Source of the DNA: Escherichia coli
Lineage (GTDB): Bacteria > Pseudomonadota > Gammaproteobacteria > Enterobacterales > Enterobacteriaceae
Assembly (NCBI RefSeq): GCF_003334385.1
Contig: NZ_QOWN01000016.1
Length of the DNA stretch: 64,000 nucleotides
Direction: 5' to 3' (one strand)
Shown piece by piece: positions 13,790 to 16,474 of this stretch. The notes below the pieces were generated by a model. It did no database searches and was not told the origin of the DNA. It saw only the letters and a program-made list of their open reading frames with translations. A program made the position numbers and the translations under genes. Position 1 is the first letter of the stretch. Each line of letters opens with the position of its first letter.

Positions 13790-14671
13790 TTAATTCTTAC
13801 GACCGGTAATACGGCACCACTCTTCTTTTTCCACGACCGGGTCCAGTGCGAAGCTATCGGCATAAGCTTCACAAACGCTCTCTGCCTGGCTTGCCAGAAT
13901 ACCGGAAAGGCCCAGCAAACCGCCTGAAACCGGCAGGACGCTGATTAACGGTGCCAGTTCACGTAATGGGCCTGCAAGGATGTTAGCGACCACCACGTCG
14001 GCTTTCATTTCTTCTGGCTGATCTTTCGGTAAGTAGAGTTCCAGACGGTCAGAAACGCCATTACGTTCGGCGTTATCGCGGCTGGCCTGAATCGCCTGCG
14101 GATCGATATCAATACCAATGGCTTTTGCTGCACCCAGTTTCAGCGCCGCGATCGCCAGAATGCCGGAACCACAGCCAAAGTCGATGACTGTTTTACCGGT
14201 TAAATCGAGGCTGTCGAGCCATTGCAGGCACAGAGAGGTGGTTGGATGGGTACCCGTACCAAACGCCAGCCCTGGATCTAACATCACGTTGACGGCGTTT
14301 TCGTCCGGCACATCACGCCAGCTAGGGCAGATCCACAGTCGTTCACCAAAGCGCATCGGGTGGAAATTATCCATCCATTCGCGCTCCCAGTCTTTATCTT
14401 CTAGTTGTTCGATTTTATGCGCGAAGCCTGCGCCGAGCAGCGGATGGTTTTCCAGAATCGCCACCACGTCGTTCATATCGGTTTCAGCGTCGAACAGACC
14501 AATCACATCGGTGTCGCCCCACAGGCGCGTTTCGCCCGGCAGCGGTTCAAATACTGGCGTATCGTGGGTATCCTGAAAAGTGATAGAAACGGCACCCGCT
14601 TCCATCAGCGCATCGCTAAGATCTTCCGCGTTCGCGCCGGTGGTGTTCAGTTTCAGTTGGATCCAAGGCAT
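13790..14671 (-). CDS. prmA: ribosomal protein L11 methyltransferase
   Basis: 293 aa; SAM-binding motif [15 protein letters not shown]. Confidence 0.93.
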
Positions 14672-14682
14672 GGCAAAACTCT

Positions 14683-16134
14683 TTATTTATCAGTAGTCAA
14701 AACGGTAGCTTGCGGGACGGATGTACCGAAACGGTTTCCGACCAGGAAAGCCAGCAAACTTAGTAGTAACGAGGGCACGATAGGGTGGAAGCCCAGGTAC
14801 TGAATATTCAGCGTCGCGAGTACGGCATACAGCACGCCGCCAACGATCATCGCACTTAGCGCGCCTTTGGCGTTGGCGCGTTCCCAGTAAAGACCCAGCA
14901 CCAGCGGCCACAGGAAAACGGCTTCCAGCCCACCGAAGGCCAACAAATTCAGCCAGATGATCATTTCTGGCGGCTTCCAGGCGGCAAGCAGCAGCAACGC
15001 GCCGAGAACTAACGTAATTACCGCCGACATCCGCTTCAGACGCGTCTCGTTTTGCATTTGATCCGGACGGATATTCAGATAGAGATCTTTAATGATCGTA
15101 GCGGAACTTTGCAGCAGTTGGGCGTTAATTGTCGACATGATCGCAGCCATCGGTGCAGCCAGGAAGATCCCGGCAGCAAACGGTGGCAGCACTTTTACCA
15201 TTAACGTTGGGATCACCAGGTCCGGTACGGTGAGATCGGGGATCACCGCCCGACCTAACGCTCCGGCCAGGTGCATACCGAACATCAGAATTGCGACCAC
15301 AATCGTACCGATGATGATCCCCCGATGTACGGCTTTGCTGTCTTTATAAGAGATACAGCGCACCGCAGTATGCGGCAGGCCAATCACGCCAAAACACACC
15401 AGTACCCAGAACGACGTCATAAAGGCAGGCGACAGAATATCGTCAGCGCCTTGTGGCGTAACCAGTTGCGGATCGATGGTTTGCAAGGTCTGTACTGCGT
15501 TACTTAAGCCGCCAGCGGCATGTACTACGCCAATAAGCAGCACAACGGTGCCAATCAGCATCACAAGCCCTTGCATGGTGTCGTTCAGCACGCTGGCGCG
15601 AAAGCCACCAAAGGCGGTATATAACGCAATGCTGATACCAAAAATCAGCAGCCCGGTTTCATAAGGAATACCCGCCGCGGTTTCCAGCAGGCGCGCACCG
15701 CCGATAAACTGCACGGTCATCGCACCAACGAACGCAACCAGCAAACTCAAACTCGCCAGCCACACCAGAAGACGACTCTGGTAGCGGGCAAACAGCATAT
15801 CGTTCAGCGTCACTGCATTGTAGCGGCGCGCAAGAATCGCAAACTTCTTGCCGAGAATACCGAGTGAAAGCCAGACTGCAGGAAGCTGAATCATCGCCAG
15901 CAATACCCAGCCCAGCCCGTATTTATAAGCAGCTCCTGGCCCGCCGATAAACGAACTGGCACTGATATAGGTCGCGGTGAGCGTCATCGCCAGCACAATA
16001 CCGCCCATAGAGCGGCTGCCGAGGAAATACTCATTAAGGAAGGTGCCGGTGCTCCGTTTACGCATCGCATAAACCGAGATACCGAACACCACCACCAGAT
16101 AGGCGACCAGCGGTAGAATTACTTCAAGCTGCAT
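14683..16134 (-). CDS. panF: sodium/pantothenate symporter (SSS family)
   Basis: 483 aa from ATG at 16134 ([13 protein letters not shown]...); polytopic. Confidence 0.92.
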
Positions 16135-16366
16135 CGTCATCCTCCAGTGGGATATCGCGATAGATAAATTTCACCATCGCCCAGCACAGTCCAATAAACA
16201 GCAGCGGCGTCAGGATGCAGGCCATCTCAAACCAGCGCGGAAAGCCGGTAAAACCGGGGGCAACGCCAGATAAGTAAGCGGCTACTAACCAAACTGCCAG
16301 ATACAAAAGGGTCAGCCCCAGCGCCCAGCGCGCCTCTTTATGGGCCTGAACAAAACGAGTGTCCAT
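16124..16366 (-). CDS. yhdT: small membrane protein (DUF997), overlaps panF start
   Basis: 80 aa, two hydrophobic helices; stop overlaps the panF start region by about 11 nt. Confidence 0.8.
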   Translation of the reverse strand: MDTRFVQAHKEARWALGLTLLYLAVWLVAAYLSGVAPGFTGFPRWFEMACILTPLLFIGLCWAMVKFIYRDIPLEDDDAA

Positions 16367-16431
16367 TTTTTGTCCCTGATGGGTGAAGAAAGCGGGGATT
16401 GTACCTTATGGGGGTTGTCGATCCCCAGTAA

Positions 16432-16460
16432 TAAAAAAGGCCGGAAAATCCGGCCTTTTG
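16432..16460 (-). terminator. accBC operon terminator
   Basis: AAAAGGCCGG-AAAAT-CCGGCCTTTT hairpin; read on the minus strand it is followed by a T-run, 15 nt after accC stop. Confidence 0.7.
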
Positions 16461-16474
16461 ACGCTTTAGCAGTC

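Follow-up and report, generated by a model that had tools for sequence, protein, structure and literature searches.

The gene pair yhdT-panF was analyzed in a 64,000-nt stretch of Escherichia coli DNA (NCBI RefSeq assembly GCF_003334385.1, contig NZ_QOWN01000016.1), referred to here as the window. The panF gene (14683..16134, minus strand, 483 amino acids plus stop) encodes the Na+/pantothenate symporter PanF, a member of the sodium:solute symporter (SSS) family, and yhdT (16124..16366, minus strand, 80 codons plus TGA) encodes a protein of the DUF997/YhdT family. YhdT is probably a small integral-membrane partner, or beta-subunit, that associates physically with PanF. That PanF strictly requires YhdT is a possibility put forward only tentatively. 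DUF997 would constitute a third small-partner family of sodium:solute symporters, specific to the PanF clade, a proposal that is well supported but unproven.

The two genes overlap by exactly 11 nt, ATGCAGCTTGA, running from the panF start codon to the yhdT stop codon (16124..16134, minus strand). On the coding strand the junction reads ...CTG GAG GAT GAC GAT GCA GCT TGA, in which the yhdT stop codon TGA occupies 16126-16124. Two in-frame ATG codons are available to panF, one at 16140, directly abutted by a GGAGG sequence, and one at 16134, with the GGAGG 6 nt before it. Mechanical open reading frame (ORF) calling starts panF at 16140, which would lengthen the overlap to 17 nt. Among 80 Enterobacterales loci, collected by scanning genome contigs with a profile from an Enterobacterales-only YhdT alignment (a sample of close relatives, uninformative on deep co-occurrence), the second start is kept as ATG in 77 and as GTG in 2, and the first ATG is often absent. 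Because only the second ATG is conserved, the start was assigned to 16134 (MQLEV..., 483 amino acids). The preliminary description of this DNA had placed the end of yhdT about 11 nt inside panF on the same strand and had described the product as an 80-residue two-helix membrane protein; both statements are borne out, by the start at 16134, by the 80-codon ORF and by the two helices of an AlphaFold2 model.

The overlap is conserved far beyond chance. The yhdT stop codon lies 11 nt inside panF (ATGnnnnnTGA) in 79 of the 80 Enterobacterales loci, and in 12 of 16 distant lineages the genes overlap by 1-14 nt, the other 4 having gaps of 3-43 nt; the common forms of the distant junctions are ATGA and overlaps of 8 or 11 nt. 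In the window, the GGAGG Shine-Dalgarno sequence of panF (16141..16145, minus strand), 6 nt 5' of the ATG, falls within the yhdT codons Leu74-Glu75-Asp76, and in most lineages it likewise coincides with tail codons for Glu and Asp (GAG GAG GAA and similar). A Shine-Dalgarno sequence embedded in the upstream gene together with a short overlap is the classic geometry of translational coupling, and it is therefore inferred that the two proteins are synthesized in a fixed ratio. The GAG/GAA/GAT runs in the last ~8 yhdT codons (window 16141-16162, and the corresponding homologue junctions) double as the panF Shine-Dalgarno sequence, so that constraint at the protein level and constraint at the RNA level are confounded there.

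Is the pairing of DUF997 with PanF a peculiarity of enterobacteria? Co-occurrence was followed in both directions. From DUF997 to PanF, the contigs of 11 distant DUF997 cluster representatives, which share 25-50% identity with E. coli YhdT, were located. A same-strand SSF gene lies directly 3' of the DUF997 gene in 10 of the 10 loci with downstream DNA, the eleventh contig ending at the DUF997 stop codon. All ten downstream products match the TIGR02119 panF model best, ahead of every other SSS subfamily, with 463-703 bits for the four that are full length (cutoff 328). The genes that flank the pair have nothing in common between loci (MetJ/pirin, glucokinase/TRAP, aminotransferase/DapB-like, P-type ATPase and others). 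From PanF to DUF997, a tblastn search of PLSDB, which includes several mislabelled chromosomes, returned 18 records at E<=1e-40, belonging to Escherichia, Salmonella, Klebsiella, Proteus, Aeromonas, Bacillus, Cytobacillus, Fusobacterium and Cetobacterium. A DUF997 ORF was found directly upstream of the PanF orthologue in 18/18. Thirteen of these records are also matched by E. coli YhdT; in the other five (Cytobacillus, Bacillus, Fusobacterium and two of Cetobacterium) the upstream DUF997 ORF is annotated as 'YhdT family protein' or was found with the family-alignment profile. The coupling is unanimous both ways across Pseudomonadota, Bacillota, Fusobacteriota and several unclassified metagenomic lineages, in a sample of about 15-20 independent lineages rather than a census. 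Co-occurrence of DUF997 genes with SSS transporters had been proposed in the preliminary description as a check on an accessory-subunit relationship, and it was found without exception in either direction.

One of the loci carries a damaged panF. In CP028897.1 (GCA_003072645.1; L098:3501-5200), an intact DUF997 ORF is followed by panF in three fragments of 238, 101 and 160 amino acids, an apparent pseudogene or sequencing frameshift.

YhdT is under purifying selection. Pairwise comparison with 14 Enterobacterales orthologues, with the overlap region left out, gave ratios of nonsynonymous to synonymous substitution (dN/dS) of 0.12-0.29. DUF997 was found to be a small family, since a profile search run exhaustively over 1.84 billion representatives recovered just 163 clusters, many of them fragments with frameshifts. 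Sixty-eight diverse full-length members, which share 25-53% identity with E. coli YhdT and all match the Pfam model (68/68), were aligned; P43 and W45 are invariant (68/68) and E11 is present in 67/68. G41, F46, S49, C50 and W26 are strongly conserved, and L74 is near-invariant, as are G41, F46 and C50. The signature G41-x-P43-x-W45-F46 (codons at 16229..16246, minus strand) lies at the start of helix 2, predicted to face the periplasm. The C-terminal motif F-(K/R)-D-(I/M)-(P/S)-L-(D/E), with F/Y at the first position in its wider form, is also strongly conserved in the 68 members; its codons lie at 16142..16162 (minus strand) in the window, and it is predicted to be cytoplasmic and is followed by an acidic tail. 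In the AlphaFold2 model the helices span residues 3-32 and 44-67, with a predicted local distance difference test (pLDDT) of 92-98. Lys and Arg average 3.3 before the first transmembrane helix, 0.6 in the inter-helix loop and 1.1 after the second helix. This concentration before helix 1 and depletion in the loop predict a hairpin with both termini in the cytoplasm (N-in/C-in) and the GxPxWF turn at the periplasmic side.

No solved structure of YhdT or PanF was found in structure searches, and the complex was modelled as a single chain. The fusion PanF-(GGGGS)6-YhdT (593 residues) links the C-terminus of PanF with the N-terminus of YhdT, both predicted to be cytoplasmic, and its alignment combined 21 genuinely paired rows with unpaired PanF and DUF997 rows. 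AlphaFold2 returned a predicted template modelling score (pTM) of 0.87 and a mean pLDDT of 87.0, with the linker disordered. PanF makes up 483 of the 593 residues (81%), and an undocked YhdT would cap the pTM at ~0.8; the observed value exceeds this cap and therefore suggests that YhdT is confidently placed relative to PanF. A fold search recovered the SSS/LeuT fold for the PanF part of the model, with SGLT2-MAP17 and SGLT1-MAP17 as top matches, and also SiaT, NIS and vSGLT.

The currently available data suggest the following mode of action. The genes yhdT and panF would form one translation unit, in which ribosomes finishing yhdT are handed to the Shine-Dalgarno sequence and start codon of panF inside the last yhdT codons, and YhdT and PanF would thereby be made together at a fixed ratio. 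YhdT would insert as a hairpin of N-in/C-in topology, its GxPxWF turn facing the periplasm and its FKDxPL(D/E)-acidic tail lying in the cytoplasm, and would pack peripherally against the LeuT-fold core of PanF, which has 13 helices. There it most probably stabilizes PanF or is needed for its activity. YhdT would thus work as DUF485/YjcH does with ActP-type symporters and DUF4212 with VC_2705-type symporters, and would parallel human MAP17, which has been resolved together with SGLT1 and SGLT2. A stronger form of the proposal, regarded here as speculative and rather doubtful, is that PanF is not a single-component transporter at all: lacking YhdT, its obligatory beta-subunit, PanF would be unstable or inactive, and, together with DUF485 and DUF4212, the two-helix subunit would be ancestral and general in bacterial SSS (SLC5-type) transporters, with MAP17 as a parallel in humans. 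In that case, functional annotation, expression in other hosts and structural studies of these transporters would need to take in the small gene.

Published genetic data bear on the pair. In a screen of Keio mutants, only those of yhdT and panF, besides recA and recC, were synthetically lethal with every one of panB, panC, panD and panZ, and the recA and recC mutants represent conjugation/recombination artefacts (Cote et al., 2016; PMC5120140). The yhdT phenotype is compatible both with a real requirement for YhdT and with polarity on panF. Keio deletions leave the final 21 nt of a gene in place; for yhdT this would retain the panF ATG and GAGG but abolish upstream translation.

Several points weigh against a physical partnership of YhdT with PanF. 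The synthetic lethality of yhdT was ascribed by its authors to disruption of panF through the overlap (PMC5120140). Part of the conservation of the C-terminal motif and acidic tail may stem from the embedded Shine-Dalgarno sequence and not from protein function. PanF was reportedly characterized by Jackowski and Alix in 1990 as a single gene product. No natural DUF997-SSF fusion was found among 163 representative clusters or the 120 best PanF matches, and Pfam scans of 68 members gave no credible sequence homology of YhdT to DUF485 or DUF4212. Docking of YhdT on PanF is inferred from pTM alone, not from predicted aligned error (PAE) or coordinates. A control fusion with E. coli YjcH, PanF-(GGGGS)6-YjcH, counts in favor of YhdT docking, having a pTM of 0.69 and a YjcH pLDDT of 54-73, in agreement with the arithmetic for an undocked protein; this control is unmatched, however, with a shallow YjcH alignment (>=76% identity), fewer PanF rows and a lower PanF pLDDT. 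Structure prediction of the complex, which the preliminary description had also suggested, thus favors docking as far as a pTM of 0.87 against 0.69 can indicate it.

Other functions of YhdT would account for parts of the same evidence. YhdT may act on PanF without being a stable stoichiometric subunit, as a dedicated insertion or assembly factor or as a regulator of activity or turnover, for example via its acidic tail. The exclusive pairing of DUF997 with panF would be equally expected of such a chaperone or regulator, the lack of fusions among the sequences searched fits it, and the small E. coli membrane proteins AcrZ, MgtS and SgrT are modulators rather than core subunits. This account is nevertheless rather unlikely: the tight overlap is a rule of the family and favors fixed-ratio synthesis, the AlphaFold2 fusion behaves as a confidently packed complex, and the analogues DUF485 and DUF4212 act genetically as required components. 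It is also improbable that YhdT serves some separate purpose in the membrane, is merely co-regulated with pantothenate uptake and makes no contact with PanF. Co-transcription alone is no proof of interaction, and prmA is likewise packed beside panF in Enterobacterales, yet is no transporter subunit. However, the adjacency of DUF997 and panF, unlike that of prmA, outlives complete turnover of the neighborhood in every lineage sampled, whichever of the two genes is the starting point, and in one genome persists even where panF is broken into three fragments; moreover, an 80-residue hairpin whose soluble tails are short and acidic leaves little room for a separate activity.

The remaining alternative dispenses with the protein altogether. 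The yhdT gene could be only a cis-acting leader ORF, whose translation unmasks the panF ribosome-binding site or brings ribosomes to it, the peptide itself being irrelevant. The location of the panF Shine-Dalgarno sequence and start codon inside yhdT fits such a leader, the acidic-tail codons are purine-rich Shine-Dalgarno sequences in many lineages, and polarity would explain the Keio yhdT phenotype. Yet the YhdT sequence is conserved far from the junction, P43 and W45 are invariant and E11, G41, F46, C50 and L74 near-invariant, dN/dS is low, every aligned member matches the Pfam model, and the four lineages with gaps of 3-43 nt still keep the DUF997 protein. Because of this selection, the residue conservation and the charge pattern of the hairpin, yhdT is unlikely to be a mere leader ORF, and the alternative is considered highly improbable. 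The physical partnership of YhdT with PanF remains the favored explanation.

Both proteins are readily recognized. YhdT matches Pfam DUF997 (PF06196) at E=4.5e-28 over residues 7-77 of 80 and the NCBIfam model NF007918 'YhdT family' at 165.8 bits (cutoff 107) over residues 1-80 of 80, and a yhdT match is present in 5426/5426 complete E. coli genomes. PanF scores 758.2 bits (cutoff 328) against the TIGR02119 equivalog, a model that was presumably built for pathogens without pantothenate synthesis, in which PanF would be the only route to coenzyme A (CoA). RefSeq annotation of E. coli lists 'yhdT: YhdT family protein' followed by 'panF: sodium/pantothenate symporter'. In Pfam and NCBIfam, DUF997 proteins are labelled 'DUF997', 'hypothetical protein' or 'YhdT family protein', and are never named a subunit. 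In a 2025 review of CoA metabolism, PanF still figures as one stand-alone permease. The preliminary description had called the relationship of the small protein to PanF not well characterized, and this holds within the literature and preprint libraries searched, in which no paper on YhdT function and no structure was found. The supplements of Mori 2021 list PanF as undetected and make no mention of YhdT, and neither protein is present in the supplements of an acid-stress ribosome profiling (Ribo-seq) study.

The minus-strand gene order in the window is accB-accC, then yhdT-panF-prmA-dusB-fis. A hairpin with a T-run resembling an intrinsic terminator (16435..16459, minus strand) lies 3' of accC and parts accBC from yhdT-panF. 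AGGGA (16373..16377, minus strand), 6 nt 5' of the yhdT ATG, is the likely yhdT Shine-Dalgarno sequence as read from the DNA. A promoter scan found no consensus sigma-70 promoter between the accC terminator and yhdT, and an Rfam scan of the 68-nt yhdT leader and the junction returned nothing near any gathering score. When a 421-nt query covering the accC terminator, leader, yhdT and panF start was compared with the 5426 E. coli genomes, all matched, though 4004 aligned over >=80% of its length; this suggests a variable or indel-bearing segment in window 16367-16470, probably the accC-yhdT intergenic region. On the other side, prmA (13790..14671, minus strand) lies 11 nt 3' of panF on the same strand and probably belongs to the same transcription unit as yhdT-panF in Enterobacterales; outside this order it is not kept with the pair. 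A 781-residue protein from one NCBI genome (P0275) has PanF joined to PrmA-like methyltransferase domains, probably by read-through of the 11-nt panF-prmA gap (a frameshift or annotation error). Two other candidates from the fusion search were rejected, P0172 as repeat junk and P0267 as an over-long PanF.

A further neighbor recurs in some anaerobes. An FprA-type flavodiiron gene, with Lactamase_B/ODP/flavodoxin domains, adjoins yhdT-panF in four loci (L102:930-2141, L106:1-1106, L094:4494-5723 and L097:696-1922); the two Cetobacterium somerae records and one metagenomic contig have it upstream of the pair, and a further contig has it downstream.

PanF is the textbook bacterial uptake system for pantothenate (vitamin B5) and has always been described as one protein. 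If YhdT is a required subunit of it, heterologous expression, transport assays and structure determination of PanF, as well as its annotation in metabolic models, should carry both genes. The DUF997 family of ~80-residue proteins would gain a function, and an emerging rule, that SSS/SLC5 transporters have tiny membrane partners, would gain a third independent family. Standard annotation already shows yhdT and panF side by side, and no concept would be overturned, because the principle has been established for two sister families.

These two families provide the closest comparisons. Transposon fitness data showed that DUF485 (YjcH) and DUF4212 are needed for the adjacent SSS permeases, and DUF997 is without mention in that study (Price et al., bioRxiv 10.1101/072470). 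Like YhdT, DUF485/YjcH is a small (~100 residues) two-helix inner-membrane protein whose gene lies upstream of, and overlaps, that of an SSS permease: in E. coli the yjcH stop codon overlaps the actP start by 4 nt (L099:2900-3214; NC_000913.3 4284899-4285213). The yjcH-actP pair is a second small-protein/SSS pair with the same coupled layout in the E. coli genome. The overlap and the fitness data bear out the earlier suggestion that small membrane proteins recur upstream of SSS genes. The genetic support for YjcH comes from transposon cofitness with its permease in the absence of polar effects (bioRxiv 10.1101/072470), whereas that for YhdT is limited to an ambiguous deletion phenotype. YjcH also differs in family (PF04341 versus PF06196) and in partner, a 549-residue ActP-type transporter, and was undocked on PanF in the AlphaFold2 fusion. 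DUF4212/TIGR03647 is likewise a hairpin of ~80 residues encoded upstream of an SSS gene; it was first predicted to be a small subunit from hydrophobicity and gene context, and fitness support followed later, for the use of D-alanine and lactate (bioRxiv 10.1101/072470). Unlike YhdT, it is a separate family that pairs with the TIGR03648 (VC_2705 family) SSS subfamily.

Similarity of DUF997 to these families stays below threshold. Pfam DUF4212 matches E. coli YhdT at E=8 and 5/68 DUF997 members at E<=0.1 (best 1.1e-3), and Pfam DUF485 matches 2/68 members at E<=0.1. An hhalign comparison of DUF997 with DUF485 returned a 'probability' of 99.7; YjcH scored 135.5, versus 130-137 for shuffled, reversed and PanF-window controls, and the match was rejected as an artefact because the controls score the same. 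The most frequent weak Pfam cross-match of DUF997 is DctQ, the small membrane subunit of TRAP transporters (14/68 members at E<=0.1, 2 at E<=0.001), which probably reflects transmembrane-helix composition.

More distant parallels exist. MAP17 (PDZK1IP1) is small and membrane-embedded, as is YhdT, and binds transporters of the SSS/SLC5 family, human SGLT1 and SGLT2, as is proposed for YhdT. It is a single-pass eukaryotic protein whose sequence is unrelated to YhdT and whose gene lies elsewhere in the genome, and serves as an analogy only. KdpF, AcrZ, CydX, MgtS and DctQ resemble the proposed YhdT in being small hydrophobic proteins that stabilize or modulate large transporters, whereas their systems and folds are unrelated and none partners an SSS transporter. 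YhdT shows class features of SSS small subunits: it is small and hydrophobic, encoded directly upstream of and co-directionally with its symporter gene, and kept with it in both directions regardless of neighbors. YhdT is assigned to neither DUF485 nor DUF4212, to which its similarity is below threshold, and is placed beside them among the SSS small subunits by proposed function and by architecture.

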